Part shown: piece after piece, positions 1 through 34,082 of the stretch
How positions within the stretch are numbered: position 1 is the stretch's first letter
Layout of the letters: the number at the start of each line of letters is the position of its first letter
NCBI GenBank assembly: GCA_947446975.1
Contig: CANFHM010000007.1
Location: 7,459-71,458, forward strand
DNA: 64,000 bases
Reading direction: 5' to 3'
DNA from: Microthrixaceae bacterium
GTDB lineage: Bacteria > Actinomycetota > Acidimicrobiia > Acidimicrobiales > Acidimicrobilacustridaceae
Program-made: the position numbers and the translations under genes
Notes under the pieces: generated by a model
The model's database searches: none
What the model saw: only the letters and a program-made list of their open reading frames with translations
Told to the model about the DNA's origin: nothing

Positions 1-1086
1 GGCGACATGGGCCCGTTCGTTCCACAGCGCCCGGCCCTGCTCCACGAGCTCCTCGATCCCATGACGACGGAGGAACGCGGCCTGACTGGTGAGCTCCAGC
101 GGTGATGACAGCTGGAACTGGTCGACGGCGACATCGGTGGTGATGTCCTGGGAGCCGGGATCATCGAGCGGGTGACTCCCCCGCTCCTGACCGCGGAAGG
201 TCCGCAACCAGCCCATCTCGGGACGCCCGGCCAGCTCGGCGGTCGGGGCGCCGTAGTCGAACACGAGGATGTGACCACGCGACAGCCGACGTTCGACGGT
301 GGCGAGCCACTCGCCGGCGGCGCCCTGCCACGGGAACCAGGTGTCGAGCGGGAGATCCGGAGCACGGTCGAGGAGCTCACCCACACCGTCGACGACCACC
401 TGTGGGGCGCGACCCACGATGAGGTCGAGTTCGCCGTCGGGGGCGGCGGCCACCTCCATCTGCTCGATGACCAGATCGCCGATGTCGCGGGGGCGTCGCG
501 CATCGCCGGCATCGGCGTCGACGTCAGCAGCGGCGGACCGGCGGATCCGCAGGATCTCGAAGGGGAGGTTGTCGAGGAGTTCATTGGCCAGCACAACGCC
601 ACAGGACATGAGTGGCAGGTCCGTGGTGCTGATGAACTGCGGTCCGTCGCCGAGCTGCGGGGATGCGACGAATGCCTCCAGTTCGAAGCCGTTGCGCTCC
701 CCCATCCAGCCGGGCAGGTGCTCGGCATGCATGGCCCGCTGGAACGCCGACTGTTCGACCAGCACATAGAGCAGACTCGACGAGCACTCCGGTGCGGCGA
801 ACCTGATGGCACGGGCGAGCGTACCGGGGCCGGCGCCCACCTCGGCCACCACGAAGGGATCGGGTCGCCCGGCCTCGATCCACCAGGCGTCCAGCACCCG
901 GGCCAGCACCGCCCCGAACAACGGACCGACCTCCGGGCTGGTGAGGAAGTCCGCTCCCCGACCGGCGCGACCGCCACGCTCGTAGAACCCGTGACGCGGG
1001 TCGTACAGCGCGACGCGCATGTACTCGGCGAAGGTGATGGAACCGCGCTCCCCGATGAGGGAGCGCACCGCCTCGAGGGGCGTCAA
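1..1086 (-). CDS. MidA/NDUFAF7-family SAM-dependent methyltransferase (3' end runs off window)
   Basis: Absent from the ORF track; translated by hand from a TTG at 1086 that overlaps the nuoN stop: MTPLEAVRSLIGERGSITFAEYMRVALYDPRHGFY...DFLTSPEVGPLFG...EVGAGPGTLA...LANELLDNLP...PGSQDIT...QAAFLRRHGI. These are Methyltransf_28 family motifs; the frame is still open at base 1. Confidence 0.9.
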   Translation of the reverse strand, partial: MTPLEAVRSLIGERGSITFAEYMRVALYDPRHGFYERGGRAGRGADFLTSPEVGPLFGAVLARVLDAWWIEAGRPDPFVVAEVGAGPGTLARAIRFAAPECSSSLLYVLVEQSAFQRAMHAEHLPGWMGERNGFELEAFVASPQLGDGPQFISTTDLPLMSCGVVLANELLDNLPFEILRIRRSAAADVDADAGDARRPRDIGDLVIEQMEVAAAPDGELDLIVGRAPQVVVDGVGELLDRAPDLPLDTWFPWQGAAGEWLATVERRLSRGHILVFDYGAPTAELAGRPEMGWLRTFRGQERGSHPLDDPGSQDITTDVAVDQFQLSSPLELTSQAAFLRRHGIEELVEQGRALWNERAHVA

Positions 1087-2594
1087 CGCCCGATCGACAG
1101 GAGCGAGATCGGATCGGTGAAGTGGGTGATCACGCTGGGAAGCACACCGATCACGATGGTGACGGCCACGGTGATGACGAGTGCGGCCATGATCGAGGAG
1201 GGGACCCGGATCGGGGTGCGGTCACCGTCGGGGACCTCATCCATCCACATGACCCGCATCAGTCGGCCGTAGTACCCGAACGCGATCACCGAGTTGATGC
1301 CGACGAGGACGGCGAGCACGTAGCCCGAGGTGGAGCCGGCGGAGGTGAGCGCCCGGAAGATCTCGAGCTTGGCGAACCAGCCACCCGCCGGCGGGATGCC
1401 CGCCAGGGCGAACAGGAAGATCGTCATGGCGACGGTGAGTCCCGGGGCGTAGTGGAAGAGTCCGCCGAACGAGGTGATCTCGCCGGAACGGGTCTTGCGG
1501 GCCACGGCGATGACGACGGCGAAGGCGCCGAGGTTCATCGCGGCGTAGATGAGCAGGTAGGTGACGACCGCACGGAGCGCCTCGCCGCCCGAGGTGAGGC
1601 TCACACCGGCGACCGCCAACGGGGCGAGGATGTAGCCGGCCTGGGCGATGCCCGAGTAGGCGAGCATGCGCACCACGTTGGTCTGGCGCAGCGCCACGAG
1701 GTTGCCGAAGGTCATGGTGACGGCGGCGAGCACCCACATGAGCGGCTCGAAGACGTCGTGGCGTCCGTAGAAGCCCACGAAGATGATGTTGAGCAGTGCC
1801 ACGAAACCGGCGGCCTTGGAGGCCACTGCGAGGAACGAGGTGACCGGCGTGGGAGCGCCTTCGTAGGTGTCGGGTGCCCACATGTGGAACGGCACCGCCG
1901 AGACCTTGAAGGCGAAGCCGATGATCACGAAGACGATGCCGAGCGTGACGATCGGCTGGGAGGAGATGGCCTCGCCCAGCTTCGGCCCGATCTCGGCGAG
2001 CAGGGTGGATCCGGTGATGCCGTAGATGAGCGAGAGGCCGTAGAGCAGGATCGCCGAGGCGAACACGCCCATCAGGTAGTACTTCATGCCCGCTTCGTTG
2101 GACCGGAGATCGCGCTTGCGCCAGGCGGCGAGCATGTAGGCCGGGATGGAGATGAGCTCGAGCGCCACGAAGATGCTGATGAGGTCGCGGGCTGAGGCCA
2201 TGACCATCATGCCGAGGACCGACGCGAGGATGAGCTGGTAGTACTCCCCCTCCCAGTAGTCGCCCTCGGCGATGTAGTTGGTGGACAGCAGGATCACCAC
2301 GTAGCCGGAGATCACGAACAGCGCCGAGAGCAGCAGCGAGTAGGGATCGACCACGAAGGCCCCGCCGAACAGGACCCGTGAGGTTCCGTCGTTTGCGAGC
2401 GTGGCGATGGGGATGAGCGATGCCAGCAGACCGACGCCGGCGAGCGAGGAGGAGGTCCAGCGCGAGTGCTCGCCGGTGAAGGCGTCGACCACGATGATCA
2501 CGAGCAGGGTCGCCGCCACGATGATCAGCGGCGCGAGCGCGTGATAGTCGATGCTCGGCGACTGCCAGGCGAACGTCATGAGCGAGGCGAGCAA
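1083..2594 (-). CDS. nuoN: NADH-quinone oxidoreductase subunit N (11-subunit operon)
   Basis: Multi-TM; FKVSAVPFHMWAPDTYEGAP and RMLAYS motifs. Confidence 0.95.
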   Translation of the reverse strand: MLASLMTFAWQSPSIDYHALAPLIIVAATLLVIIVVDAFTGEHSRWTSSSLAGVGLLASLIPIATLANDGTSRVLFGGAFVVDPYSLLLSALFVISGYVVILLSTNYIAEGDYWEGEYYQLILASVLGMMVMASARDLISIFVALELISIPAYMLAAWRKRDLRSNEAGMKYYLMGVFASAILLYGLSLIYGITGSTLLAEIGPKLGEAISSQPIVTLGIVFVIIGFAFKVSAVPFHMWAPDTYEGAPTPVTSFLAVASKAAGFVALLNIIFVGFYGRHDVFEPLMWVLAAVTMTFGNLVALRQTNVVRMLAYSGIAQAGYILAPLAVAGVSLTSGGEALRAVVTYLLIYAAMNLGAFAVVIAVARKTRSGEITSFGGLFHYAPGLTVAMTIFLFALAGIPPAGGWFAKLEIFRALTSAGSTSGYVLAVLVGINSVIAFGYYGRLMRVMWMDEVPDGDRTPIRVPSSIMAALVITVAVTIVIGVLPSVITHFTDPISLLSIGR

Positions 2595-2598
2595 GGGA

Positions 2599-4158
2599 TC
2601 AGCCCCCGTGTCCGGACAGGGCGCTCACGATGTTGCCGACGGCACCATCGGTGACCTTGAAGATGAGGTTCGGGTACACACCGAGCACGAGGATGAGGAC
2701 GAGCATCGGGGTCCAGGCCAGCCATTCGGTGAACGACACATCGTGGATGTGCGGATCGTCCTCGAACTCGGCCTTGGGGACGCCGAAGCCCACACGCTGG
2801 TACAGCCACAGCAGGTAGGCGGCGGCGAGCACGGTGCCCAGTGCGGCGATGACCATCAGCACCCGGAAGAACGCCACGTTCAGACCGCCACCGGGGTTGT
2901 AGGCCGAGAGGATGGCGGGGAACTCACCCCAGAATCCCGCCAGACCGGGCAGACCCAGCGAGGCCATGACCGAGAAGCCGAGGATCCAGCCCATGTGCGG
3001 CATCTGCTTGAGCATGCCGCCGAGGCGGGCGATGTCGAGGGTGTGGAAGCGCTCCTTGGTGGAACCGGCCACGAAGAACAGCATGCCGGTGATGAGGCCA
3101 TGGGCCACCATGCCGAAGATGGCGGCGCTCATGCCGAAGCTGGTGAGCGAGGCGATGGCGAGCATCACGAAGCCCATGTGTGACACCGAGGAGAAGGCGA
3201 TGAGACGCTTCATGTCGGTCTGGGCCAGACAGCACAGTGCGCCGTAGATGATGCCGATGACCGCCAGGACACCGATGAAGGGAGCCCACTTCTCGGCGGC
3301 GTGCGGAAGGATCGGGATGGCGATACGGATGAAGCCGTAGGTGCCGAGCTTCAGCAGGACTGCGGCGAGGATGACCGAACCCACGGTGGGAGCCTGGGTG
3401 TGGGCGTCGGGCAGCCAGGTGTGGAACGGGAACATCGGCACCTTGATGCCGAAACCCATGAACATGCCGCCGAAGATCCACAGTGCGGCACCGGTGGAGA
3501 TCCCGGTGGCCAGCGCCGGGAGCTGACGCATGTCGAAGGTGTGCATCATCACGCCGCCGACGTCGACCTTGTCGGAGAGGAAGTACAGGGCGAGGAAGCT
3601 CACGATCATGAGCGCCGAGCCGAACAGCGTGTAGAGGAAGAACTTGAGTGATGCGTACTGACGCTTCTCGCCGCCCCAGACGCCGATGAGGAAGTACATC
3701 GGCAGCAGCACGACCTCGAAGAAGACGAAGAACAGGATGAGGTCCTGGGCGATGAACGACCCGATCATGCCGGTCTCGAGGATGAGGATCAGGATGAGGA
3801 ACGCCTTGGGGTTGCGCGGCTCGGGGAAGTGGTTCCACGAGTAGATGATGCACAGCGGCACCACCAGCAGCGTGAGGGCGATCATGGGCAGCGAGATGCC
3901 GTCCATGCCCACGATGTAGCGGCTGTTGATCAGCGGGATCCAGGACTTGTCGACGACGAACTGGAGCGTGCCGCTCTTGTCGTAGTCGAAGTTGGTCAGC
4001 AGCAGGACGCCAAGCAGCCCGACCACCAAGGAGGTGGCGAGCGCGATGACCTTGTGCGCCCCCTCCCTCGCCTTCGGGATGAGCAGCATGATCAGCGCAC
4101 CGATCAGCGGAAGGAAGACGGCGAGGCTCAAGCCCCAGCTGTTCAGAAAGTCTTTCAT
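2599..4158 (-). CDS. nuoM: NADH-quinone oxidoreductase subunit M (11-subunit operon)
   Basis: KVPMFPFHTWLPDAHTQAP, LLKLGTYG, SSVSHMG motifs. Confidence 0.95.
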   Translation of the reverse strand: MKDFLNSWGLSLAVFLPLIGALIMLLIPKAREGAHKVIALATSLVVGLLGVLLLTNFDYDKSGTLQFVVDKSWIPLINSRYIVGMDGISLPMIALTLLVVPLCIIYSWNHFPEPRNPKAFLILILILETGMIGSFIAQDLILFFVFFEVVLLPMYFLIGVWGGEKRQYASLKFFLYTLFGSALMIVSFLALYFLSDKVDVGGVMMHTFDMRQLPALATGISTGAALWIFGGMFMGFGIKVPMFPFHTWLPDAHTQAPTVGSVILAAVLLKLGTYGFIRIAIPILPHAAEKWAPFIGVLAVIGIIYGALCCLAQTDMKRLIAFSSVSHMGFVMLAIASLTSFGMSAAIFGMVAHGLITGMLFFVAGSTKERFHTLDIARLGGMLKQMPHMGWILGFSVMASLGLPGLAGFWGEFPAILSAYNPGGGLNVAFFRVLMVIAALGTVLAAAYLLWLYQRVGFGVPKAEFEDDPHIHDVSFTEWLAWTPMLVLILVLGVYPNLIFKVTDGAVGNIVSALSGHGG

Positions 4159-4176
4159 CGAGTTGGTCCTGAGCTC

Positions 4177-6495
<2,319 letters not shown>

Positions 6496-6499
6496 AGCA

Positions 6500-6814
6500 T
6501 CAGCCCTTCATCAGATCGACGTCGTTGACGTCGATGCTCTGACGATTGCGGTGGATCAACAGGACGATCGCCAGACCGACACCGACCTCAGCCGCCGCGA
6601 TGGCGATCACGAACAGGGCGAACACCTGACCGGAGAGGTTGGAGGGATCGGTGACATGCCACATGGCACCGAAGGCGACGAGGTTGATGTTGACCGAGTT
6701 CAGGATGAGTTCGATCGACATCAGCACGAGCACCGCATTGCGACGGGCGAGGACGCCGTAGACCCCGATGCAGAAGAGGATCGCGCCGAGGAAGAGGAAC
6801 TGGTTGACCAGCAT
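6500..6814 (-). CDS. nuoK: NADH-quinone oxidoreductase subunit K (11-subunit operon)
   Basis: 3 TM; IELILN and [10 protein letters not shown]. Confidence 0.95.
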
Positions 6815-7323
6815 CAGTCCCTCCGAGCGAGGACGATGGCGCCGATGAGCGCAGCGAGCAGAAGGATCGAGATGACCTCGAAGGGCAGCAGGTAGGTGGA
6901 GAAGATGGAATCGCTGACCTGGGCGGTGCGTTGGACGAGCAGATCGCCGAACTCACGCTTCCCGAAGCCGTCCCAGAGCGAGTAGCCCATCACTCCGGCG
7001 AGCAGCACACCGATGAGTGCGGCCATGCGACGAGCCCCGGCGGAGTTGTCGAGGTTGTCGTCGGTGCCGGTCTTGGTGCGGGTGAGCATGATGCCGAACA
7101 GGAACAGCACGATGATGGCGCCGAGGTAGACGAGCACCTGGGTGATGGCCACGAACTCGGCAGCCAGCAGGATGTACTGGGCGGCCACACCGGCGAGCAC
7201 CAGCACCAGCCAGAGCGCGGCGTGCATGAGGTTCTTGCAGGTGACGACCCGGATGGCGCCGAACACCATGAGGGCGGCGATGATGTAGAACGCGATGTTC
7301 TGGGCGACGAGAAGAGCGAGCAT
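6814..7323 (-). CDS. nuoJ: NADH-quinone oxidoreductase subunit J (11-subunit operon)
   Basis: Start moved to ATG 7323 (overlaps nuoI stop); QVLVYLGAI and YLLPFE motifs. Confidence 0.93.
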
Positions 7324-7826
7324 CAGTCCTTCGGCACCTTCCTGAGCTTGGCCTCGGAGCCGGCCTCGTAGGGCTCGAACTCCGGGACGGTCTCCATCCA
7401 CTGCGCCAGTCGGCTCTTGTCGTGGAGGAGATCGGCGATGCGGACCTCCGAGTACTCGTGCTCCGGGCTCCAGAAGAGCGCATCGAACGGGCAGACCTCG
7501 ACGCAGATGCCGCAGTACATGCACAGCGAGTAGTCGATGTCGAAGCGGTCGAGTTCGTTCTTCTGGCGGGGCTTGCCACCCTCGCGGCGCGGCGGGGCGA
7601 CGTACTTGTGCGCCTCGATGAAGATGCACCAGTCGGGACACTCACGGGCGCAGAGCATGCATGAGGTGCAGTTCTCCTCATGCATGGCGATGACCCCGCG
7701 GGCACGGGCCGTGGGCTCCTCGCGCTCGTGCGGGTAGCGGGTGGTCTGGGGACCCGACTTGAGGGTCTTGACCATCTCGCCGAACGTGACACCGAGACCC
7801 TTGATGAGACCGGGGACCTGAGGCAT
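7323..7826 (-). CDS. nuoI: NADH-quinone oxidoreductase subunit I (11-subunit operon), 2x[4Fe-4S]
   Basis: [12 protein letters not shown] and [12 protein letters not shown]. Confidence 0.95.
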
Positions 7827-8863
7827 CAGAACACCACCTTCAGGATGGCCGTGGCGACGATGTTGACGAGCGCCAGCGGGATGAGGAACTTCCAGGCGAA
7901 GCTCTGGAGCTGATCCTCACGGAGACGGGGATAGGTGAACCGGACCCAGAAGATGATGAACGAGACGAGCATCACCTTGGCGAACAGCACCGCCGGGCCG
8001 AGGACGTAGTACCAGTCGCTGTTGGCCGAGAGCCACGGGACGGCCCAGCCGCCGAGGAACATGACGGCGGCGATACCGGCGAACACGAACGCCGTGGCGA
8101 ACTCGGCGAGGAAGAAGATGAGGAAGCGGAAGCCCGTGTACTCGACCTGGTAGCCGCTCACGATCTCCGATTCGGCGACCGGCATGTCGAAGGGCGGCTG
8201 CGTGAGCTCGGCCTGGACGGCGGCGATGAAGATGAAGAACCCGATGAACTGGGTGAGGATGTACGGGTTGCCGATGCCGGTCCAGCCGAAGATGGCACCG
8301 CCGTTCTGGGCGAACACGATGCCGTTGAGGCTGAGGGTGCCGGCCTGGATGACCACACCCATGACGGCGAGCACCATGGGCAGCTCGTAGGCGATGAGCT
8401 GCCCCGCCGCACGGAGCGCACCCATGAGCGAGTACTTGTTGGCCGAGGCCCAGCCCGCCATGAGGACACCGATGACCGACAGCGAGGAGATCGCCAGCAC
8501 GTAGAACACACCGACGTCGAGGTTCTCGACGACCAGATGTGCCGATGCGGGCAGTGCCACGTAGAGCAGCAGCGTGGAGGAGAGCACCACGAGCGGAGCG
8601 GCCTTGAACACCCAGAGGTCGGCGCCGTTCGGGGCGATGTCCTCCTTCTGGATGAACTTCACGCCGTCGGCGAGCAGCTGGAGCAGACCACGGGGGCCGG
8701 CCTCCTGCGGACCGAGACGGCTCTGCATCCAACTCATGATCTTGAACAGGAAGACCACGCCGAGGATGAGGGCGGTGGTGGGGACGACCGCGCCGACGAC
8801 GAGCACCTTGATGACGGTGGACAGCCAGTACGGCGGGGCGAAGGAGGCCAGCATCGGGATCAT
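7826..8863 (-). CDS. nuoH: NADH-quinone oxidoreductase subunit H (11-subunit operon)
   Basis: Start moved to ATG 8863 (overlaps nuoD stop); [34 protein letters not shown]. Confidence 0.93.
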
Positions 8864-10035: not shown

Positions 10036-10724
10036 TCGGCGTCACCCTCCTCGGAATCGGCGGCTCCGGGCATCGGCTCGACATCGACGATCCCCGGCCA
10101 CGGACGCACGCGACGGGCGAGGAGCGGGAAGTCCTTGCGCAGGGGGAAGCCCTGGAAGTCGGTCGGCAGGTACATGTTGATCAGGTTGGGATGACCGTCG
10201 AAGGTGATCCCGAACATCTCGCGGGTCTCGCGCTCATGCCAGTTGGCACCGGCGAAGACGCCCGACCAGGTGGGGAGCGAGAGATCGTCGTCAGGCACAT
10301 CGGCCTTGAGATGGATGCCCGTGGCGGTGGCGATGCTGTAGACGTGGGCGATGACCTGGAAGCGGGTGTCGCCACCGGCATAGCCCTGCACGATGGGAGC
10401 TGGTTCCTTCGGCTCGGCGCCCGAGACCACGAGGTCCTCCTGGGCGTCCATGTCGCGGCCGAACGGGGAGGGCAGCCAGTCGATGGCCGACACGTAGTCG
10501 AAGAACGTGAATCCCATCGCCTTCACGGCCTCGGCGGCCTCGCGCCATGCGGTGCGATCGATGCGCACCCAGAGATCGTCGCCGGGACGGATGTGGGATC
10601 CGAGGACGGCATCGCCGAGACGTTCGATGAGTTCGGCCAGCACGGCCTCGCGGGCGGCGTCGGTCTCGACGACTGCGCCGGACTCGGCCTCTGCTGCTGC
10701 GTCGGTGGTGTCAGTTGACGACAA
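10032..10724 (-). CDS. nuoC: NADH-quinone oxidoreductase subunit C (11-subunit operon)
   Basis: Likely TTG start at 10724 after GGAAGGG; [18 protein letters not shown] and FPLRKDF. Confidence 0.9.
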
Positions 10725-17949: not shown

Positions 17950-17951
17950 GA

Positions 17952-24573: not shown

Positions 24574-25907
24574 CAGCGATCGACCTCCCCGAGGATCGGA
24601 TCGACCGACGAGATGATGGCCACGGCGTCGGCGACGAGGTTGCCGTGCATGAGATGCGGGAGCGTCTGGAGGTTCACGAAACTGGGAGCCCGCACATGCA
24701 TGCGATACGGGGTGGGTGAGCCGTCGCTGACGATGTAGCAGCCGAGTTCGCCGCGGGGTGACTCGATGGACACATAGGCCTCACCCTCGGGAACCTTGAA
24801 TCCCTCGGTGAAGATCTTGAAGTGATGGATGAGCGCTTCCATGGACTCGTCGATGCGGGCACGAGGCGGCGGCGTGACCTTCTTGTCCTGGATCCGGTAG
24901 TCGCCCTTCGGCATGTTCTCGAGGCACTGGCGGACGATCTTCATCGACTCACGGATCTCGGCGAGACGGATGGCGAACCGGTCGAAGCAGTCGCCGTAGG
25001 AGCCGACGACGACATCGAAGTCGATCTGATCGAAGGCGAGGTACGGCATGTCGCGGCGCAGATCCCAGTCGTACCCGGTCGAGCGCAGGATGGGGCCGGT
25101 GACCCCGAGGGCGAGGCACTCCTCGGCCGAGATGACGCCGATTCCCTGCAGGCGCTCGCGCCAGATGGGCTGGTTGGTCATCAGCACGTCGTACTCGGCG
25201 AGGCGCGGCGGGAGCATGTCGAGCAGGCGCAGGATGCTGTCGCGCCAGCCGTCGGGGAGATCGGCGGCGACGCCACCCGGACGGATGTAGTTGTGGTTCA
25301 TGCGGAGGCCGGTGACCTCCTGCAGGAAGCGCAGCGCCTCTTCGCGCTCGCGCCAGCCGTAGAGCATCATCGACACCGCACCGAGGTCCATGCCGTTGGT
25401 GGCCATGAACAGCAGATGCGAGGAGATGCGATTCATCTCGGTCATGAGCATGCGGATCCAGACCGCTCGCTCGGGGACCTCGATGTCGAGGAGCTTCTCG
25501 ACCGTGAGGGAGAACGCCAGCTCGGTGAACAGCGGCGCGGCGTAATCCATGCGCGTGACGTTGGTGGGGCCCTGCAGATAGGTGAGGTCCTCACCGGTGC
25601 GCTCCATGCCGGTGTGGAGGTAGCCGATGATCGGCTTGCACCGAAGGACTGTTTCACCCTGCAGCTCGAGCATGAGCCGGAGCACACCGTGGGTGCTCGG
25701 ATGCTGCGGGCCCATGTTGATGATCATGGTCTCGTCGTCGGGCACCGAATCGAGCTCGGCGTCGAGGGCCTCGGACTCCGAGAGTCGCAGCACGGCACCG
25801 AGCTCGCGCAGCCGCTCACCGGCGGCGACGATGTCGCGGCTGGTGAGCTCCTGGGCGCCTTCGGCTGTCTGGGCGAGGTTGATGGGGGCGTCGTGTGTGG
25901 TGGTCAT
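24573..25907 (-). CDS. nuoD: NADH-quinone oxidoreductase subunit D (14-subunit operon)
   Basis: GPQHPSTHGVLR, GYLHTG, RMDY, GEVDR. Confidence 0.96.
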   Translation of the reverse strand: MTTTHDAPINLAQTAEGAQELTSRDIVAAGERLRELGAVLRLSESEALDAELDSVPDDETMIINMGPQHPSTHGVLRLMLELQGETVLRCKPIIGYLHTGMERTGEDLTYLQGPTNVTRMDYAAPLFTELAFSLTVEKLLDIEVPERAVWIRMLMTEMNRISSHLLFMATNGMDLGAVSMMLYGWREREEALRFLQEVTGLRMNHNYIRPGGVAADLPDGWRDSILRLLDMLPPRLAEYDVLMTNQPIWRERLQGIGVISAEECLALGVTGPILRSTGYDWDLRRDMPYLAFDQIDFDVVVGSYGDCFDRFAIRLAEIRESMKIVRQCLENMPKGDYRIQDKKVTPPPRARIDESMEALIHHFKIFTEGFKVPEGEAYVSIESPRGELGCYIVSDGSPTPYRMHVRAPSFVNLQTLPHLMHGNLVADAVAIISSVDPILGEVDR

Positions 25908-25918
25908 GGGTGCGTGAG

Positions 25919-26476
25919 CTATCGGGAGGCGGGTCGGTTCGCAGGAGCACCCTTGAACTGCACGGGGATGCGACCGGAGTCGTAGTCCTTGCGCAGCGGA
26001 TGACCCAGCCAGTCCTCGGGCATGAGGATGCGGGTGAGATCGGGATGGCCGTCGAAGGAGATCCCGAACATGTCGAAGGTCTCGCGTTCCATCGCCTCGG
26101 TGCCGGGATAGAGGTCGAAGGCACTGGCCAGACGAGCGTCGTCGACAGGGATCTGGATGCGCAGGCGGAGTCGGCCGCGCTCCTTGTGGTTGATGAGGTT
26201 GACCACGACCTCGAAGCGCTCCGTGGCGACAGAGGCCGGCACGCCGCTGCGACCGGGATGGGTCAGGTAGTCGACGCCACAGAGGTCGATGACCGAGTGG
26301 TACCCGGCCTCATGGAGCGTGCGCAGGAGCGCCGGATACTGCTCGCGTGTGGGATGCAGCACGAGCTGTCCGCCCGACCGCGTGAGCAGTGCGCCGAAGA
26401 GCTCCTCGGGGGCGACCTCGGGCGTGACCTCGACCTCGGCGTCGTCCGCTCCGGTGGGGGCGGTGTCGTCGGCCAT
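25919..26476 (-). CDS. nuoC: NADH-quinone oxidoreductase subunit C (14-subunit operon)
   Basis: ERETFDMFGISFDGHP, GHPLRKDY. Confidence 0.95.
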   Translation of the reverse strand: MADDTAPTGADDAEVEVTPEVAPEELFGALLTRSGGQLVLHPTREQYPALLRTLHEAGYHSVIDLCGVDYLTHPGRSGVPASVATERFEVVVNLINHKERGRLRLRIQIPVDDARLASAFDLYPGTEAMERETFDMFGISFDGHPDLTRILMPEDWLGHPLRKDYDSGRIPVQFKGAPANRPASR

Positions 26477-26478
26477 GG

Positions 26479-27066
26479 TCAGCTCCGTCCGAGCACGACG
26501 GGAGTGGGCCCGGCGGCTCCGACCTGCTCGATGACGATGCCCGCGCCCTGACCGGGGCGGCGGGTGAGCTCGCCGTCACGGATCTGCTGATGCAGGGTGA
26601 GGATGGCGTGCATGAGGGTCTCGGGCGACGGCGGGCAGCCCGGGGCGTACACATCGACGGGGACGATCTGATCGACGCCCTGCACGATGGCGTAGTTGTT
26701 GAACATGCCACCCGAGGAGGCGCACACACCCATGGAGATGACCCACTTGGGTTCCATCATCTGGTCGTAGATCTGACGGAGGACCGGCGCCATCTTCTGG
26801 GACACGCGACCGGCCACGATCATGAGATCGGCCTGGCGCGGGGAAGCCCGGAAGGTCTCCATGCCATAGCGGGAGAGGTCGTAGTGGGGACCGCCGGCGG
26901 CCATCATCTCGATGGCGCAGCATGCGAGACCGAAGGTGGCCGGCATGACGCTGTGGGACCGGGCCCACTTCACGAGGCCCTCGAGGGTGCCGGTGAGGAA
27001 GTTGTGGCTGAGTCCTTCGAGGCCGGCGTCGAGGAGCCCACCGGTGGGACGGGATTCGCTCGACAC
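26479..27066 (-). CDS. nuoB: NADH-quinone oxidoreductase subunit B (14-subunit operon)
   Basis: [21 protein letters not shown]. Confidence 0.95.
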
Positions 27067-27542
27067 TATGCAGCTTCTTCCGAGGAGGTGGCCGGAGCGG
27101 GGTCGCGGCCTTCGAGACCGACGAGTCGGATGGTCGAGGACGCGGTGCGGGCCGGCGAGGTGATACCGCTGCGACGCAGCTGCTTGATGGGACCCCAGTC
27201 GAGTGCGCCGTTGCTGATGAGGTACACGAACGATTCGAAGACCGCCGCCGAGAAGATGACGATGGCAGCGATGCCGAACCCGCCGAGCGATCGGAACACG
27301 GTGGCGAACGGGAACAGGAAGATGACCTCGATGTCGAACACGATGAAGATCATCGCCACGAGGAAGAACTTCACCGGGAACCGCTCGGGGACGTCACGTC
27401 CGGGGACGATGCCGCACTCGTAGGGAGAGGACTTCGAGGCCGAGGGACGACGGGGAGCCAGGACCTTGGACACCACGATGCTGATCGCGGCGAACAGGAT
27501 GGCCAGCACCAGCATGGCGAGGATGGGGAGGTACTGACCCAC
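27066..27542 (-). CDS. nuoA: NADH-quinone oxidoreductase subunit A (14-subunit operon)
   Basis: [13 protein letters not shown]. Confidence 0.95.
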
Positions 27543-27545: not shown

Positions 27546-28484
27546 TCAGGCCCCCTTGGCCGCGTCGGCGAGCGCCTTGTTCTTCATCAGGACCTTCTCA
27601 CGGTTGTGGAGGGTCCAGGCGAAGATGATGAACAGCGACACCGAGATGAGGAAGTACAGGAACGGGATGAGTCGGACGTTGCCGAGATCGCGGACCAGCA
27701 CCACCGAGTAGACCGGGGCCGAGGTGTCGACCTGCGGGAGGGGCGGCGGCTCACCGGGCTTGGCCTCCTGGGTGATCACCTTCTGCACCTGCACCACGGC
27801 GTAGTGGGTGGGGTGCTTGAAGGTGACGGCGAGCTTCACACGGAAGACCGCACGGCAGATCATGTCGGAATCGGCGCATTCGTTCTCGCGCTGGGGCTTG
27901 CCGCCGTACTCCCAGGTGTTGAGCTTCTTGTAGGCCGTGGGGCCGGTGAAGATGCCGGCGTTGACCAGCGCCACATCGGCGGCGGCCTGGGATTCACCGG
28001 CGGCCGAGGAGGCCACGAGGCTCCAGCCGTTCATGTTCTCCGAGTGGATGTACTCGGCGAGGATCTTCGGGTTGTTGGCCTGGAGATCCGAGAGCAGGAA
28101 GCCGTTCGGATAGTCGGCGGCCAGTTCCGGATGATCGGCGAGGATCTGGTCGGCGGTGGGGAGCGACGAGGGATCGGCGAGACCGCCCACCTGGGTGGTC
28201 TTCGGCGCACCCGAACCGTTCACGTAGATCTCGACCGGCTTCCATGAGGCATTGGTGCCGCGGGGACCGATGGCGGGCGGGGTGATCCACCAGATGAGCG
28301 TGAGGATCGTGAGCCAGCCGAACAGACCGGTGAGGGTGAGCAGCATGCCGAGACGCGCCCCGACGTTGCTGGACAGCAGCAACCACACCGAACCCATCAG
28401 CACCCCGACGCCGACGGAGACGACGAGGATGCCGCGGATGCCCGGGTTGAAGGCGATGCCGGCGAGGATCTGGAGATGGTGCAT
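27546..28484 (-). CDS. Hypothetical membrane protein (2 N-terminal TM, extracytoplasmic domain, 1 C-terminal TM)
   Basis: Start moved to ATG 28484, 2 nt after the cyt c stop; clear hydrophobic helices; no recognised family motif. Confidence 0.8.
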   Translation of the reverse strand: MHHLQILAGIAFNPGIRGILVVSVGVGVLMGSVWLLLSSNVGARLGMLLTLTGLFGWLTILTLIWWITPPAIGPRGTNASWKPVEIYVNGSGAPKTTQVGGLADPSSLPTADQILADHPELAADYPNGFLLSDLQANNPKILAEYIHSENMNGWSLVASSAAGESQAAADVALVNAGIFTGPTAYKKLNTWEYGGKPQRENECADSDMICRAVFRVKLAVTFKHPTHYAVVQVQKVITQEAKPGEPPPLPQVDTSAPVYSVVLVRDLGNVRLIPFLYFLISVSLFIIFAWTLHNREKVLMKNKALADAAKGA

Positions 28485-28486: not shown

Positions 28487-29593
28487 TCAGAGGCTCCGCT
28501 CGTAGGCGACGACAGCTGCGATCTGGTCCTGGGTCAGCATGACCTGATCGGGCGACATGATGGCAGTCTTCGGGTCGACGGCGTTCGGGTTCACGCCGAA
28601 GCTCCCCATCCGGCCGCTGGAGAGACCCTGGATGCCGTAGGAGGTCTGGGCCTTGGGATAGGCCGACACGAAGGCGACCTGCTGAGCAGCCGTCGGGAAC
28701 TGGCGGATCTCGGACCCGTTGGTCATGTTGGGACCGAAACCACCGCCACCGGGGACCTGGGCCTGACCGTAGGACCAGCCCTTGGTGTGGCAGCGGCCGC
28801 ATGAGTAGGCGCCACCGGCGAAGCTGTCGGTGTAGCCGAGGTTGAAGACGGCCTCACCGAGGGTCTTGTAGGGACCGCCGGGGACGGTGCAGTTGCCGGA
28901 GGCATCGGCGGCACAGGTCTTGTCGAGTTCCGCCTGCACAGCAGCGGTGGATTCCTCGGCCGGGATCTGGATCGAGATCAGGTACTCGATGACATCGGAG
29001 ATCTGCTGCTCGGTGAGCGGACCACCACCGGGAGCACCCCAGGCCGGCATCGGCGAGAAGCCGCGTCCGTAGTTGAGGATCAGGGTGACCTGCTCGGGCG
29101 TGTAGCGGTACATCACGGTATTGAGGGCGGGAGCGCGCCACGAGACCGCAGCCACGTAGTCGCCGGTGGCGGGATCGGTGATGGTGTAGTTGGCCACACC
29201 GCCCACGCCGTTGGGGCCATGGCAGCTCGCGCACTGGGCGCCGTTGATGTAGACGTTCTCACCGCGCTTGATCGCCTCTTCCTTGAAGGCGTCGACGGCG
29301 TTGGTCTGCCGGCTGGGCTCAGCCAGCCAGTAGAGCGGCAGAGCGATGCCGATCACTGCGAGGAGCACGAGGCCGGCACCGAGGGTGCGGTCGAGCTTCT
29401 TCGTCTCCAGTTCCTCGTCATCGAGGTAGGGCTTGCGGTTGGCGGCGAGTTCGACCTCGGAGCCGACCTCGGCGCGCCCCTTGCGCATGTTGAACAGGAT
29501 GGCGATGGCGAACGCCAGCAGCAGCAGCACACCGAGCACGATGCCGATGGTGCGGGCCGCATTGGCCAGGACGAGGGTCGAGGTGATGTGCAT
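28487..29593 (-). CDS. Membrane-anchored diheme cytochrome c
   Basis: Two N-terminal TM; CASCH..MPAW and CGRCH..MGSF (two His/Met hemes). Confidence 0.92.
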   Translation of the reverse strand: MHITSTLVLANAARTIGIVLGVLLLLAFAIAILFNMRKGRAEVGSEVELAANRKPYLDDEELETKKLDRTLGAGLVLLAVIGIALPLYWLAEPSRQTNAVDAFKEEAIKRGENVYINGAQCASCHGPNGVGGVANYTITDPATGDYVAAVSWRAPALNTVMYRYTPEQVTLILNYGRGFSPMPAWGAPGGGPLTEQQISDVIEYLISIQIPAEESTAAVQAELDKTCAADASGNCTVPGGPYKTLGEAVFNLGYTDSFAGGAYSCGRCHTKGWSYGQAQVPGGGGFGPNMTNGSEIRQFPTAAQQVAFVSAYPKAQTSYGIQGLSSGRMGSFGVNPNAVDPKTAIMSPDQVMLTQDQIAAVVAYERSL

Positions 29594-30438
29594 CAGTGTC
29601 CTCCGCCCACGCAGTGCGGGCCTTCAGCTTCTTGACCAGTGGTGTTGGTCCCGATGGGCGGACCCTGGAAGATCTGCCCGGTGTCGACGGTGAGCACGCC
29701 GGCGGTGACATCCATGGCGAAGCGATCCATGCCACGGGGGGCCGGACCACCCTTCTTCTCGCCGGCCTGGTTGTACTGCGAACCGTGGCAGGGGCACTCG
29801 AACCACTGCGAGGTCTGGCAGGACGGCACTCGGCAACCGAGATGCGGGCACTTCTGGTAGAGGGCGACGACGCCGGCCTCCATGCCGGGGAGCACCGCGG
29901 CCGGATACACGGCCTTGGCCTTCTCGACCGCCGAGGACGGATAGGCGGTGATCCACATACGACCCTCAGCGAGGTACAGGAAGCCCTTGCCGGCGGCGAT
30001 CTTGGCGAGGATGTCGCTCACGTTGCCGACACGGATCTTCGAGCCGAAGCCACCCTTCGGCACAGGCCACAGGAAGGCGACGAACGCCGCTCCGAAGCCG
30101 CTGAGGGTGAGCCCGATGAGGATGATGATCGAGCGGTTGAAGAACTGACGGCGGGTGACCCCGATGGCGTCGGCATCCGGCGGCACATAGGTGGCCACCG
30201 AGCTGGTGACCTTCTCGACGGAACCGGAGCGGCGCTCGATGGCCGCGGACTTCTCGACCTGTCGACCCGACAGAACGGCGTCCTCGGGGAGCGCAGCGGT
30301 CTCGGAGTGATCACGCTTGCGGGTCTCGCGGCTGAGCGCACCCGTGGCCCCACCGGAGTCGCTCCGACGGAGCGCGGCGAACACGACCACGCCGCCGAGG
30401 ATGATCACGATGGGGATGACGATGACGAGAGGATTCAT
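29593..30438 (-). CDS. Rieske [2Fe-2S] subunit of Rieske/cytochrome b complex
   Basis: CPHLGC and CPCHGSQY boxes; internal twin-arginine TRRQFF before a TM helix. Confidence 0.94.
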   Translation of the reverse strand: MNPLVIVIPIVIILGGVVVFAALRRSDSGGATGALSRETRKRDHSETAALPEDAVLSGRQVEKSAAIERRSGSVEKVTSSVATYVPPDADAIGVTRRQFFNRSIIILIGLTLSGFGAAFVAFLWPVPKGGFGSKIRVGNVSDILAKIAAGKGFLYLAEGRMWITAYPSSAVEKAKAVYPAAVLPGMEAGVVALYQKCPHLGCRVPSCQTSQWFECPCHGSQYNQAGEKKGGPAPRGMDRFAMDVTAGVLTVDTGQIFQGPPIGTNTTGQEAEGPHCVGGGH

Positions 30439-30461: not shown

Positions 30462-31235
30462 TCAGAGTTCGAAGAACAGGCCGGCGGTCCAGGGGGCGAC
30501 GAAGTTGAAGCCCGGACCCCGGAAGAATGAGCCGATGACGACCAGCACGGCCCAGAACATCATCTGGACGGTGAAGAGTGAGATGGCGAACTTGCGGTCC
30601 TCGGGCTTGTTCGACGGATTGCGGTCGATGTAGGGAGCGAGGATCAGCAGGAAGATGCCCATGCCCGGGATCGTCACACCGGCGACCATCGGGTGGAACA
30701 TGGTGAGCAGTTCCTGCAGACCGAGGAAGTACCAGGGCGCCTTCGACGGGTTCGGCGTGGAGTTGATGTTGGCCAGCGCCAGCAGCGGGGCGTTCATGAA
30801 GATCGAGAAGATCATCACGAAGGCGAACATCAGCAGCGAGGCGACGAACTCCACGGCGAGCAGATGGGGCCAGGTGTGGACCTTGTCGACGGGCACGGAC
30901 TTGACGTCCTGGATCGAACCCGCCTTGACCACCGTGAGCAGCCGCTGGGTGTGACCACCCGGACCGGTGGCGGTGGGAGGAGGTGCCGCAGCGGTGGCGA
31001 CCGCCGTGGCGACGCCGCCGCCGGTGGTGGCGACTGCGGTCTCGGTGACCGCACCCTTGGACTTTGCGGACTTGGAGCGCTCGAGGAGGTGCGCCGGGAT
31101 GCGGCTGGCCTCGCCCGAGGGCGCGGCGGTTTCAGCAGCCGGGGCAGCGGCCTCGGCGGGTGCCGCAGCCTGCTCAGCAGCCTTCTCGCGAGCGGCCTCG
31201 GCTCGCTTGCGGAGATGTTCGGGGATCTCGGTCAT
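30462..31235 (-). CDS. Cytochrome b C-terminal part (subunit IV / PetD-like)
   Basis: WPHLL, NPSKAPWYF (PEWY-equivalent), 3 TM, long Ala/Pro-rich N-terminal extension. Confidence 0.9.
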   Translation of the reverse strand: MTEIPEHLRKRAEAAREKAAEQAAAPAEAAAPAAETAAPSGEASRIPAHLLERSKSAKSKGAVTETAVATTGGGVATAVATAAAPPPTATGPGGHTQRLLTVVKAGSIQDVKSVPVDKVHTWPHLLAVEFVASLLMFAFVMIFSIFMNAPLLALANINSTPNPSKAPWYFLGLQELLTMFHPMVAGVTIPGMGIFLLILAPYIDRNPSNKPEDRKFAISLFTVQMMFWAVLVVIGSFFRGPGFNFVAPWTAGLFFEL

Positions 31236-32106: not shown

Positions 32107-32523
32107 TCAACCGAGTCGCATTCCGTAGCCGTAGCCGTGGGTCGGCATGCGCTGGTGGGAGTCTCCGTCGGCCGGTGCGTCGCCGACCTTGCCCAAGATG
32201 ATCACGCCGGTGGGGCAGCGGTCCACGCAGAGCGCACATCTCGTGCAGACATCGTCGTCGATGAGGAAGACGGACTGATCGCCGGGGTCCTCACCGGGGA
32301 GTTCGGTGCCGAGTGCCTCGGCGATGGAATCGGTGCGCACCAGATGGATGCACTTCCACGGGCAGATGTCGACGCAGCCCTCGCAGGTGATGCACTCGGA
32401 CTGGTCGATGTGGATGAACTGCTTCGGCTTCACGGCCTTCGAGAGCCATGCCGCGTCGACTTCCTGGAGCTGATAATCGGCCCGGAACTCGGGCATCGGC
32501 GGGTTGGCGTCGACGCGAGCCAT
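32107..32523 (-). CDS. 2x[4Fe-4S] dicluster ferredoxin
   Basis: CITCEGCVDICP and CTRCALCVDRCP; no TM or signal peptide. Confidence 0.92.
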   Translation of the reverse strand: MARVDANPPMPEFRADYQLQEVDAAWLSKAVKPKQFIHIDQSECITCEGCVDICPWKCIHLVRTDSIAEALGTELPGEDPGDQSVFLIDDDVCTRCALCVDRCPTGVIILGKVGDAPADGDSHQRMPTHGYGYGMRLG

Positions 32524-32525: not shown

Positions 32526-32984
32526 TCAGCCCTTCCGGACCAGCGGACGGCCGTAGTCGCTCGAGACGACCTCGACGGAGGCGGCGGCAGCGGCGGCCGC
32601 ACGCTTGTCACGCTTCTGCCACCAGACCCACAGCGCGATCTGGGCGCCGAGGAACACCACGTAGATGAGCACGGCGATGATGTCGCGGATGGTCTGGTAG
32701 CTGACGGTCATGGGGAACCAGCCGCCGTAGGCCTGCGGCTTGATGATGTCGCCCGGGCCGAACAGCAGCTTGTCGGGACGCCAGTTCAGCTCGTTGTCGG
32801 CCCAGGTGAGCCACAGGTGCGGGATGATCCCGTAGAACCAGATGAACAGGAAGAACGTGTACACCGACGCCACCATCGCCTCACCCCAGGTGAGCGGTGT
32901 GCCGACGGGTCGACGCTTGGCGAACGGGATCACGAGCGCCGTGAGCGCGATGCCGATCAACAGGGCTGTAATAAGCGCAACCAC
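32526..32984 (-). CDS. Hypothetical 3-TM membrane protein, first gene of the respiratory operon
   Basis: GTG 32984 preceded by GGGAGGA; three hydrophobic segments; stop 2 nt before the ferredoxin ATG. Confidence 0.8.
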   Translation of the reverse strand: MVALITALLIGIALTALVIPFAKRRPVGTPLTWGEAMVASVYTFFLFIWFYGIIPHLWLTWADNELNWRPDKLLFGPGDIIKPQAYGGWFPMTVSYQTIRDIIAVLIYVVFLGAQIALWVWWQKRDKRAAAAAAASVEVVSSDYGRPLVRKG

Positions 32985-33000: not shown

Positions 33001-33018
33001 TCGTGAACGTTCTCACAA
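33001..33018. promoter_or_regulatory. Rex-type (or CRP/GlxR-type) operator
   Basis: TCGTGAA-CGTT-CTCACAA, two mismatches to TTGTGAA-N4-TTCACAA; lies between a minus-strand -10 (TACGAT, 33019-33024) and the RBS. Confidence 0.7.
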
Positions 33019-33254
33019 ATCGTAACTTCAGACAGGTGCCCCGGGATCATCGGATGATGCGGTCTGGTCGCGGGGCGTGGGTGATTGTCTACCACCCGTG
33101 AAGAGAGGGTGAGACATTCATCGGCCACGTTTCCACCCGACGTGGAAACCGCTCCCATACTTGGCTCCCGGCCACATCCATCGTCTAGGTTTGCCGCACG
33201 TTCCGACCCGTGGGTCGAGCTTCATCTCATCCACCTTCCTTCTCCGGAGGAGCT

Positions 33255-34082
33255 GTGACCGAAGTTCCCGAGCATCTGCTCAAGCGCTCAAAAGACCGTC
33301 GATCCGCGATGAGCGGAGAGGCCCCGAGCGGCGACTCCCCGGCTGCAGCGGCTCCGGCCGCCGAGCCCGGCTCGGGTGTCGAGGCCACGGCTCCGGCAGC
33401 TGCCGCCAAGGTCGCCGCCGCCACGCCGGCGGTCGCTGCAGAACCGGCGTTCGTGCCCCCCTATGTCGAGGCGGCGCTCAAGCGCAAGAAGATCCCGGTG
33501 TGGGCCATGCCCGTGCTGGCGTTCCTCCCGGTGTGGGTGTTCATCTACATCGGTGGTCTCTCGCCCGCCAGCGACGGCAAGCCCACGCAGCTGGCCCAGG
33601 GCCAGGCGATCTTCGCCGCCCAGTGCGCCGGTTGCCACGGTTCCGCCGGTGGCGGCGGCGTCGGCCGCCCGATGAACGAGGGCAACCTCATCAAGACCTT
33701 CCCGGACATCATCGGGCAGCTGGAGTTCGTCTGGCTCGGCAGCAATGGCGTCGGTCCCGCCGGCACGCCCTACGGCGACCCTGATCGCGAGGGTGGTCAG
33801 CACAAGACCCTCAGCTACAACGGCAATCCGATGCCGGCGTTCAACAAGTCACTCAAGCAGTCCGAGCTCCTCGCCGTCGTGCGCTACGAGCGCGAGGTGC
33901 TGTCGGGCTACAAGATCGACCCCACCCAGATCGACGCCAAGGGGCAGCTCACCTACGGCAACAGCAGCCCATACCTCGACGCCGAGGGCCAGCTCGTCAC
34001 CCCTGAGGGCAAGCCGCTGTTCGACTCGGCCGGCAAGCTCACCATCGAACCGAACTGGACGATGCCGGTCGGGAGCAAGTGA
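33255..34082 (+). CDS. Membrane-anchored monoheme cytochrome c
   Basis: GTG 33255 after GGAGG; one TM, then CAGCH and NPMPAF. Confidence 0.9.
   Translation: MTEVPEHLLKRSKDRRSAMSGEAPSGDSPAAAAPAAEPGSGVEATAPAAAAKVAAATPAVAAEPAFVPPYVEAALKRKKIPVWAMPVLAFLPVWVFIYIGGLSPASDGKPTQLAQGQAIFAAQCAGCHGSAGGGGVGRPMNEGNLIKTFPDIIGQLEFVWLGSNGVGPAGTPYGDPDREGGQHKTLSYNGNPMPAFNKSLKQSELLAVVRYEREVLSGYKIDPTQIDAKGQLTYGNSSPYLDAEGQLVTPEGKPLFDSAGKLTIEPNWTMPVGSK

Follow-up and report, generated by a model that had tools for sequence, protein, structure and literature searches.

A split Rieske/cytochrome b gene module with a predicted dicluster iron-sulfur subunit upstream of two complex I gene sets in Acidimicrobiales

The window analysed here, a stretch of 64,000 nt, raises the question of whether a b6f-like complex, a ferredoxin and two different complex I enzymes encoded side by side serve one electron circuit or are separate neighbouring units. 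The initial annotation had reported 33 co-oriented genes and read them as a single respiratory island resembling the parts list of cyanobacterial cyclic electron flow. Open reading frame calls and family profiles confirmed all 33 minus-strand genes in the order given there: a 3-TM protein, a 2[4Fe-4S] protein, cytochrome b6 (PF00033), subunit IV (PF00032), a Rieske protein (PF00355), a diheme cytochrome c and a membrane protein, followed by nuoA-N (14 genes), nuoABCDHIJKLMN (11 genes) and a midA-like gene (PF02636). Intergenic gaps range from -10 to +23 nt, and the two exceptions, 71 nt from the ferredoxin gene to b6 and 137 nt from nuoN1 to nuoA2, are also as first described. Translation probably starts at GTG 32984 in the 3-TM gene and at ATG 28484 in the membrane-protein gene. 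The midA frame is truncated by the left end of the window, and the full ORF of 397 aa is found in the genome's contig C7. At the opposite side, position 34082, the end point in the initial annotation, is the stop codon of a divergent plus-strand monoheme cytochrome c gene that was not named there. The features are collected in Table 1.

Table 1 Positions of genes and predicted control elements in the window, with the basis of each assignment
Feature	Position	Strand	Basis or remark
Monoheme cytochrome c, membrane-anchored, divergent	33255..34082	+	PF13442/PF00034; found in 64 of the 70 close loci with sufficient flank
Probable operon-promoter -10 hexamer (TANNNT)	33019..33024	-	Predicted, read from sequence; similar hexamers before the operator in many relatives
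Predicted Rex-type operator	33001..33018	-	Two mismatches to the S. avermitilis consensus (PMC5355995)
3-TM protein, candidate bc subunit	32526..32984	-	Without Pfam/NCBIfam match; precedes b6 in all 69 loci
2[4Fe-4S] protein	32107..32523	-	8 Cys conserved without exception across 72 rows; homology to both ends of a bc-associated FAD/NAD(P) flavoprotein
Cytochrome b6-type subunit, four-helix	31253..32035	-	CxGG (Cys79), basic N-terminal extension, NCBIfam ExtP
Subunit IV, APWY Qo motif	30462..31235	-	Invariant His124/Glu129
Rieske protein, CPCHGSQY	29593..30438	-	S-Y signature, Tat motif, two TM segments
Diheme class I cytochrome c, membrane-anchored	28487..29593	-	Two CxxCH, PF00034
3-TM membrane protein with outer domain, candidate bc subunit	27546..28484	-	Without family match; invariant His293/Arg295
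nuoA1-N1, 14-subunit complex I with NuoEFG	11714..27542	-	Family profiles; NuoD1 quinone-site residues kept
Probable internal -10 hexamer, leaderless-like	11586..11591	-	Predicted; 9 nt before the nuoA2 ATG; kept in same-genus G005
nuoA2B2C2D2H2I2J2K2L2M2N2, 11-subunit complex I-like	1083..11576	-	NuoD2 with Trp92 and Gln144
midA/NDUFAF7-like methyltransferase, partial	1..1086	-	PF02636

GC content is 0.64-0.71 in the cluster and 0.67-0.72 in the remaining window, and the gene order was found again in all relatives with enough flanking sequence. An origin as a genomic island was rejected, GC being not atypical and presence not patchy. The cluster is conserved core respiratory DNA of Acidimicrobiales, holding three units, and its seven-gene Rieske/cytochrome b module also occurs in two named strains, Aquihabitans sp. 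G128 and Salinilacustrithrix flava.

Profile searches of the genome, which is 88.6% complete, disclosed one cytochrome b, one subunit IV and one bc-type Rieske protein, those of the module, which is the sole bc complex detected; the initial reading of a b6f-like complex in place of QcrCAB thus stands. Cytochrome b is split into a four-helix b6 and subunit IV, and in an alignment of 72 rows the heme b residues His130, 144, 231 and 246 of b6 are invariant, as is Cys79-Leu-Gly-Gly, the predicted CxGG motif for heme cn. The N-terminal extension of b6 is basic and cytoplasmic and carries an invariant His61/His63 pair, and Arg249, Arg251 and Lys252 are invariant as well. With 308 bits b6 passes the NCBIfam ExtP cut-off of 290, subunit IV is below that of ExtQ (48 against 150), and all three subunits are far below the cut-offs of the Qcr families (122/500, 23/275 and 22/200 bits). 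The best solved-structure matches of the cytochrome b are b6 chains (6rqf, E 4e-54). As judged by motifs and ExtP score, the module is a split APWY-type Rieske/cytochrome b enzyme in place of QcrCAB. The Rieske protein has the S-Y signature in the window and in 28 of 29 loci, for which the rule in PMC4122944 (section 21) predicts a high potential. The genome carries menD and genes for a caa3-type oxidase, the latter on a separate contig. In 35 of 44 loci the divergent monoheme cytochrome c and subunit IV share an N-terminal motif. This cytochrome c is likely the carrier from the bc complex to the oxidase.

The ferredoxin, 138 aa long, has sites for two clusters but lacks the FAD/NAD module, and none of its eight Cys, nor Arg95 or Arg102, varies across all 72 aligned rows (28-94% identity). 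A paralogous APWY clade has a dicluster domain encoded upstream of cytochrome b in 9 of 10 loci; five of these upstream ORFs are 598-694 aa long, and the four that were scanned are Fer4_20 + Pyr_redox_2 + Fer4 flavoproteins. The ferredoxin is 45% identical over 74 aa to the flavoprotein C-terminus, and its residues 17-31 rank first of about 600 windows, in register ahead of the first Cys motif, for 40 of the 43 flavoproteins, among them three of the four picked by cytochrome b alone; the flavoproteins in these comparisons were actinobacterial or unnamed. A tree of the dicluster domain (75 columns, NuoI outgroup) placed the ferredoxin and flavoprotein domains together, compatible with deletion or insertion of the flavin module. 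On this homology the ferredoxin is the apparent equivalent of the N-terminal segment and dicluster domain of a bc-associated FAD/NAD(P) flavoprotein, minus the flavin module. Because it matches both parts of a flavoprotein encoded before the paralogous cytochrome b, it is likely a fixed cytoplasm-side subunit of the bc complex rather than a mobile shuttle. Its average net charge over the 72 rows is -8.4, and that of b6 residues 24-76 is +8.1. A search of the genome for a free-standing flavin partner gave none beyond GltD, encoded beside gltB and the sole close flavoprotein homologue. The subunit is not always needed, since the module occurs without it in three genomes from a single family. Single-member ferredoxin-cytochrome b fusions look like frameshift read-throughs and were left out of the counts. 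A split APWY cytochrome b in Ilumatobacter and tandem 14/11-subunit complexes are already published; the ferredoxin subunit was not found in the literature search.

Neither of the two unnamed membrane proteins has a Pfam or NCBIfam match. The 3-TM gene lies directly upstream of cytochrome b6 in all 69 loci and the ferredoxin gene in 66 of them, and a homologue of the other membrane protein follows the cytochrome c gene in 20 of 20 distant loci. The 3-TM protein was modelled as three helices (pLDDT 94) and the membrane protein at pLDDT 91.8. Fold searches with both models gave nothing informative (best Z 8.4, to a designed helical protein, and 6.8; no Foldseek E <0.001), and an Atlas search with a 3-TM homologue returned unnamed Actinomycetota clusters only. 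By conservation of position the ferredoxin and both membrane proteins behave as candidate extra subunits of the bc complex. That part of the initial proposal was borne out for the membrane proteins (69/69 and 20/20), while a role as linkers between complexes I and III was not, as they persist in 20 of 20 distant loci in which the module is not directly followed by a nuo gene.

The full complex I set immediately follows the module in all 56 close loci, with the membrane-protein gene abutting nuoA1, and in 0 of 20 loci outside the order; as predicted from gene order, it shares an operon with the module in Acidimicrobiales only. This set, nuo1, is complete for NuoA-N including NuoEFG, and NuoD1 keeps the equivalents of His38, Tyr87 and Asp139. 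The second set, nuo2, comprises NuoABCDHIJKLMN without EFG, there being one NuoE/F/G set in the genome, and NuoD2 has Trp92 and Gln144 at the positions of Tyr87 and Asp139 (Nqo4 numbering), which we take to be canonical quinone-binding residues. Trp occurs at the Tyr87 position in 24 of 35 aligned NuoD rows and Tyr in the other 11 (8 NuoD1 and 3 of other clades). A NuoD2-type gene was found in 80 of 85 genomes with this cytochrome b, four unpublished genomes included. The earlier view of one island in which the second complex I belongs to the same unit is disfavoured by a nuoN1-nuoA2 gap of 1.7-14.7 kb in six of nine relatives and by a Rex-like box of its own before nuo2 in four of the nine. 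Read by eye, the inserts in the six relatives hold unrelated genes and no common donor module. The 11-subunit complex is probably a separately promoted neighbouring unit with an altered quinone site.

The operon is headed by a predicted Rex operator near its putative promoter, and a rex gene, above the NCBIfam cut-off, is present in contig C5. The box was detected in 53 of 86 close loci (0.3 expected) and in 20 of 68 mostly distant loci (0.1 expected; five perfect), and was not found in 48 of the 68. The loci counted here and elsewhere come from related genomes and are not independent trials. Rex is a repressor of respiratory operons that NADH releases, and nuo1 is under Rex in S. avermitilis (PMC5355995). 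The core palindrome of the operator is common to CRP-family proteins, and the genome has four cNMP-domain ORFs. A generic promoter and terminator scan performed at chance level; among RNA data, one run held 7% of words, its contigs being short and mostly <90% alike.

Anammox Kuste4569-4574 and Kustd1480-1485 (PMC12954380; subfamily G, PMC5600118) are like this module in the split four-helix cytochrome b and subunit IV, the heme cn Cys, the Glu and His of subunit IV near cn, the high-potential Rieske signature and an operon-encoded cytoplasmic Fe-S partner. Their partner has an FAD/NAD module and their cytochrome c is a hexa- or octaheme, whereas here a 138 aa dicluster protein occurs with the flavoprotein absent from the operon, cytochrome c is diheme (two CxxCH), two extra membrane proteins are encoded, and the only bc complex found belongs to an aerobic chain with caa3 and bd oxidases. 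The APWY clade of Kao and Hunte (2014, PMC4122944), including Ilumatobacter coccineum, agrees in APWY, split cytochrome b and S-Y Rieske; Geobacter ExtOPQ (NCBIfam NF040969, PMC5877670), whose ExtP cut-off the present cytochrome b passes, lies among multiheme cytochromes. The available portions of these two papers do not mention the ferredoxin and extra membrane subunits present here. Cyanobacterial and chloroplast b6f with NDH-1 is alike in the split b6/IV, the CxGG motif and the co-occurrence with a complex I that has no N module, but here APWY replaces PEWY, a class I diheme c stands for cytochrome f, the ferredoxin is a 2[4Fe-4S] protein, and a photosystem was not found in the genome; the 70-residue basic extension is absent from the b6 matches, and NdhH keeps the Tyr that NuoD2 does not have. 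Actinomycete QcrCAB (bcc-aa3 supercomplex) shares menaquinol oxidation and a membrane-bound diheme c, but its QcrB is long and unsplit, whereas here cytochrome b is split with a cn site, all three subunits score far below the Qcr cut-offs and the oxidase is on another contig. A full and an N-module-less complex I per genome are known from Streptomyces nuo and nuo2 (PMC3765725) and from the 14/11-subunit complexes of Ca. Actinomarina (bioRxiv 2021.02.01.429150); in the latter the two lie close together, followed by NDUFAF7, whereas in the present cluster they are adjacent, with nuo1 attached to the bc operon.

We lean slightly towards the reading that the seven genes specify the only detected complex III, with a forward Q cycle to a caa3-type oxidase and a fixed Fe-S subunit, nuo2 being separate. 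The split APWY-type enzyme would likely oxidise menaquinol in this way, and the 2[4Fe-4S] subunit on the cytoplasmic side would likely pass low-potential electrons into the bn/cn hemes. By analogy with models of the anammox enzyme, it seems quite probable that the ferredoxin, which is acidic, docks on the basic N-terminal extension of the cytochrome b dimer, one per dimer, and probable that it carries electrons and does not merely brace the dimer. If it does carry them, chances are about even that the usual direction is inward, with a putative donor linked to NAD(P)H or flavin docking at the place that the flavin module takes up in the long form, thereby priming quinone reduction at Qn. The full complex I is proposed to be co-transcribed because both Rex-controlled NADH-oxidising steps would be linked through the menaquinone pool, the 11-subunit complex with its altered quinone site being an adjacent unit with a predicted promoter of its own. 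In residue type and approximate position only, b6 His61/His63 and Arg249/Arg251/Lys252, subunit IV His124/Glu129 and ferredoxin Arg95/Arg102 resemble residues of the anammox heme/oxidoreductase interface (PMC12954380, sections 13-14); the His-to-Arg spacing is 188-191 here and 204 in Kuenenia, and His61/His63 may, by position only, correspond to the His pair for the proposed dimer-axis heme. A complex prediction (two b6, two subunit IV, one heme, ferredoxin) scored 0.29, 0.32 and 0.29 against a mark of 0.32, with controls left unfolded, and was given no weight either way.

The direction of flow is where one rival departs. Counting against the favoured reading, the anammox authors hold that NAD(P)H-to-quinone flow through such a port wastes energy and favour the outward direction (PMC12954380); Kao and Hunte tie APWY to reverse operation, and no APWY enzyme had been characterised as of 2014 (PMC4122944). 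With an outward port, bifurcation at Qp, given menaquinol and a high-potential Rieske protein, would send one electron to the bound clusters and then to the 11-subunit complex or other cytoplasmic acceptors, and nuo2 would re-reduce quinone and pump, raising the proton yield. This is the ferredoxin-linked circuit of the initial annotation in modified form, and we regard it as rather improbable. It draws on the S-Y Rieske signature, seen in 28 of 29 loci, in combination with menaquinone, the same mismatch that argues for NAD(P)H production in anammox (PMC12954380), on the NuoD2-type gene in 80 of 85 genomes, and on the neighbouring bc module and nuo2 in Acidimicrobiales, with Rex-like boxes common to both in four of nine relatives. 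The genus is without the usual ferredoxin-reducing enzymes, so the 11-subunit complex needs some donor: 2-oxoacid:ferredoxin oxidoreductase (POR_N), not found in this genome (88.6% complete), occurs in 65 of 81 genomes of the order and in 1 of 16 of the genus, for which it was rejected as obligatory donor. The outward port is weakened, however, by NuoD2-type genes in 11 genomes without this cytochrome b at threshold (four of them from one large-genome family with weak cytochrome b matches only), by Streptomyces, which carries nuo2 (PMC3765725) together with QcrCAB, by retention of NuoD2 in two of three ferredoxin-less genomes, and by shared ancestry, which confounds the co-occurrence. A rough inference from the anammox paper's potentials gives about -300 to -340 mV after membrane crossing, sufficient to move roughly 3 rather than 4 protons per 2 electrons under a normal proton-motive force, and a fixed subunit would need a supercomplex or another carrier to shuttle. 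A more specific circuit in the abundant aerobic Acidimicrobiia, light-independent and NADH/Rex-switched, in which the sole complex III bifurcates quinol and the Fe-S subunit passes electrons via the dimer-axis heme to the Trp-site nuo2, is decidedly unlikely.

Net flow through the port would be nil if the Fe-S protein served chiefly to cap the cytoplasmic face of the dimer as a structural element, or to sense redox state there, a relic of the flavoprotein on an ordinary Q-cycle enzyme. This is unlikely, albeit consistent with the missing catalytic module and free-standing partner in this genome, with loss of the ferredoxin in three genomes, and with Geobacter ExtOPQ, of the same cytochrome b family, being described without a ferredoxin gene in the available portion of PMC5877670; the invariance of its eight Cys, Arg95 and Arg102 fits electron transfer instead, though it is no proof. 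It is very unlikely that complexes I and III form a supercomplex, or that a mobile ferredoxin cycles as it does in cyanobacteria, the membrane proteins serving as linkers: the membrane-protein gene does abut nuoA1 in all 56 close loci and one operator heads bc and nuo1, but both membrane proteins and the ferredoxin persist where nuo does not follow. Searches of this genome (88.6% complete) for a photosystem (PF00223, PF00124), a NiFe hydrogenase and a 2-oxoacid:ferredoxin oxidoreductase found none of them, which weakens the cyanobacterial cyclic-flow reading. Its parts list does not hold for the ferredoxin, whose 2[4Fe-4S] domain is of a bacterial kind, akin to that of the bc-associated flavoprotein, and not of the plant [2Fe-2S] type.

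Cytoplasmic Fe-S electron exchange by b6-type complexes and the role of heme cn are a long-standing question in photosynthetic cyclic flow and anammox. The module described here would represent such a complex in minimal form, its operon encoding a dedicated dicluster subunit, and it appears to be the only complex III that a widespread aerobic group possesses. The module's presence in Aquihabitans sp. G128 and Salinilacustrithrix flava makes the question experimentally approachable. As predicted from these genes, the QcrCAB design familiar from mycobacteria and streptomycetes is not the one used by deep-branching Actinomycetota.

The 33 co-oriented genes described in the initial annotation, with their order and spacing, were all borne out in the window. 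In the 80 best ferredoxin loci, counting each neighbour only where the locus had room for it, the 3-TM gene was present in 77/77, b6 in 73/73, subunit IV in 65/65, the Rieske gene in 62/62, the diheme c gene in 60/60, the membrane protein gene in 59/59 and nuoA in 56/56. The reading of the cluster as an island thus fails, since every neighbour is conserved apart from the divergent cytochrome c (64/70); these loci are close kin, so that the counts reflect inheritance and not function. A wider draw of 201 genomes from the phylum included 85 with the cytochrome b of the module (E below 1e-110), and 70 of these loci were fetched. Excluded were the genome itself with its close relatives (five), four unpublished genomes and six whose match lay close to a contig end. 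One fetched locus lacked upstream room; in the remaining 69 (three belong to the same order), cytochrome b had the 3-TM gene upstream in all and the ferredoxin gene in 66. Among 20 loci, all outside the order and read over 20 kb, the membrane protein followed the cytochrome c gene in every case and nuo genes were directly behind the module in none, and therefore the conserved unit is the seven genes from the 3-TM protein to the membrane protein. Conservation of gene order holds for this module in the sample of the phylum, while the direct link to nuo was absent from the 20 loci outside the order. The two membrane proteins, suggested earlier as extra subunits, and the ferredoxin are probably parts of the bc complex.

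In three genomes from a single family (G199, G233 and G211; loci L045, L169 and L171), the 3-TM gene lies directly before cytochrome b and the ferredoxin is missing; a fourth, G223, keeps the ferredoxin, and the family offers a natural comparison. G207, from the same order, has neither the cytochrome b of the module nor a NuoD2-type gene. The outer domain of the membrane protein is almost gone in loci L033 and L034 (118–119 aa). Subunit IV and the divergent cytochrome c share the N-terminal motif [IV]PEHL..R[SA], followed in both by an Ala/Pro-rich linker; they are the only 2 matches among 21,011 genome ORFs. Both proteins carry the motif at 35/44 loci, subunit IV frequently with a further copy, and it is possibly a cytoplasmic docking tag.

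Features of the cluster and its genome (window positions unless a contig is named)
Feature	Position	Strand	Observation
NuoD2	8860-10035	-	Trp92, Gln144
NuoI1	17952-18662	-	His/Asp-rich repeat tail at its end
NuoG			long acidic Ala/Glu linker
Membrane protein	27546-28484	-	His293 and Arg295 invariant (79 rows), end of last TM helix
Subunit IV	30462-31235	-	shared N-terminal motif
Ferredoxin	32107-32523	-	138 aa, 2[4Fe-4S]
Palindrome	33001-33018		18 bp, adjoins a -10-like hexamer
Divergent cytochrome c	33255-34082	+	shared N-terminal motif
hemD, hemB, hemL	34200-37379	-	just upstream of cluster; hemL close to module in many relatives
Oxidase cluster	contig C47:3376-11997		caa3-type core, second divergent COX1-like gene (E 3e-33), two subunit III-like genes

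The second, 11-subunit complex I (Nuo2) is only loosely attached to the cluster. The nuoN1-nuoA2 gap is 1.7–14.7 kb in 6/9 relatives, a Rex-like box precedes nuoA2 in 4/9, and a probable -10 hexamer lies 9 nt upstream of the nuoA2 ATG in the window; with this separation and these signs of its own promoter, a single unit including Nuo2 was not sustained. In NuoD2, Trp92 and Gln144 occupy the positions of Nqo4 Tyr87 and Asp139, the Trp recurring in 24 NuoD2-type rows over the phylum, where the Asp site is taken by Gln or Glu; Nuo2 therefore differs from a simple NDH-1 analogue.

A weaker cytochrome b group (about 55% identity) bears on the nature of the ferredoxin: a dicluster domain is upstream in 9/10 of its loci. 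Five upstream ORFs of this group are 598–694 aa long, and scans of four of them showed GltD-like flavoproteins carrying Fer4_20, Pyr_redox_2 and, at the C-terminus, a dicluster, the type that also provides the main unfused long matches of the ferredoxin profile. Their C-terminal dicluster is 45% identical to the window ferredoxin over 74 aa, and ferredoxin residues 17–31 also match their extreme N-terminus. The in-register N-terminal window ranked first of about 600 in 40 and among the top five in 42 of 43 flavoproteins, many of them near-copies and 39 found via the ferredoxin profile; three of the other four, chosen by cytochrome b alone, gave rank 1. The two-ended match indicates that the small protein corresponds to both ends of the long one minus the flavin/NAD module, a difference that may stem from deletion in the short form or insertion in the long one, both compatible with the dicluster-domain tree. 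A second APWY bc clade (L183–L192, 10 sampled genomes) has the full flavoprotein upstream, a cytochrome b without CxGG and a subunit IV without Glu at the cn-ligand position. The long partner thus accompanies loss of the cn site, and the short one is found where that site is kept.

For subfamily G complexes, flavoprotein partners have been described before (PMC5600118, PMC12954380). AlphaFold3 models in the latter place a single oxidoreductase capping the cytochrome b dimer, with a proposed axis heme on a cytochrome b His pair beside it and a Glu-ligated cn. The interface residue types of these anammox models are invariant in the present module, where the ferredoxin is acidic and the b6 extension basic; going by residue type and rough position only, the module may tentatively be mapped onto the Kuenenia complex.

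The only cytochrome b, subunit IV, bc-type Rieske and NuoE/F/G set that tblastn detected in the genome (2.35 Mb, 88.6% complete) lie inside the cluster; the genome encodes menD, a caa3-type oxidase and cytochrome bd as well. At this completeness it yielded no core proteins of photosystem I or II, no NiFe hydrogenase and no POR_N. The closest ferredoxin relatives are mostly from Acidimicrobiales. Most likely, electrons would pass from NADH through the 14-subunit Nuo1 to menaquinone, the seven-subunit complex III, cytochrome c and caa3, and the Fe-S subunit would be held permanently at the cytoplasmic side, providing an electron port to bn/cn.

Of the uses of such a port, inward priming of Qn is ranked first, in agreement with a primed Q cycle as considered in PMC5600118, although no ferredoxin donor was found in the genus; a structural or sensing role of the Fe-S subunit comes next. 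Outward bifurcation through this subunit into Nuo2 is placed after both: the S-Y Rieske and the co-occurrence of NuoD2 with the module's cytochrome b in 80/85 genomes (four unpublished ones included) speak for it, but some genomes carry NuoD2 while lacking this complex, others while lacking the ferredoxin, and there is little energy to spare. The bolder circuit, with complex III bifurcation feeding Nuo2, is judged improbable. Nor is the cyanobacterial-type circuit of the initial annotation favoured.

Forward flow from NADH is also the direction to which the regulatory signals point. The palindrome core occurs with at most one mismatch in 53/86 close loci (0.3 expected) and in 0/86 coding controls, the Rex-specific position is T in 42/46 distinct sites, and the window palindrome is by far the top-scoring site in the genome, which has a Rex gene. 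Among 68 mostly distant loci, 20 match the full Rex consensus with at most three mismatches (0.1 expected), five perfectly, and 48 have no such site. In S. avermitilis, according to PMC5355995, Rex acts as a repressor of nuo1, cyd, atp and hem, and NADH causes its release.

Several elements are in print, in the portions of the sources consulted: the split APWY cytochrome b of Ilumatobacter, uncharacterised (PMC4122944), groups A1/A2 (PMC3509893), the presence of both nuo and nuo2 in Streptomyces (PMC3765725), 14- and 11-subunit complexes side by side and accompanied by NDUFAF7 in Ca. Actinomarina (bioRxiv 2021.02.01.429150), 14-subunit enzymes only (PMC4453560) and Geobacter ExtOPQ (PMC5877670). 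The literature searches listed no publication describing the module's ferredoxin or its membrane proteins; subscription papers and the gene-neighbourhood figure S1 of PMC5600118 may show the ferredoxin gene. The cluster is real and conserved, neither an island nor a cyanobacterial-type circuit, and is an apparently undescribed form of APWY/subfamily G complexes; through the Rex box the bc module itself would respond to NADH status, which speaks for operation in the forward, NADH-oxidising direction.
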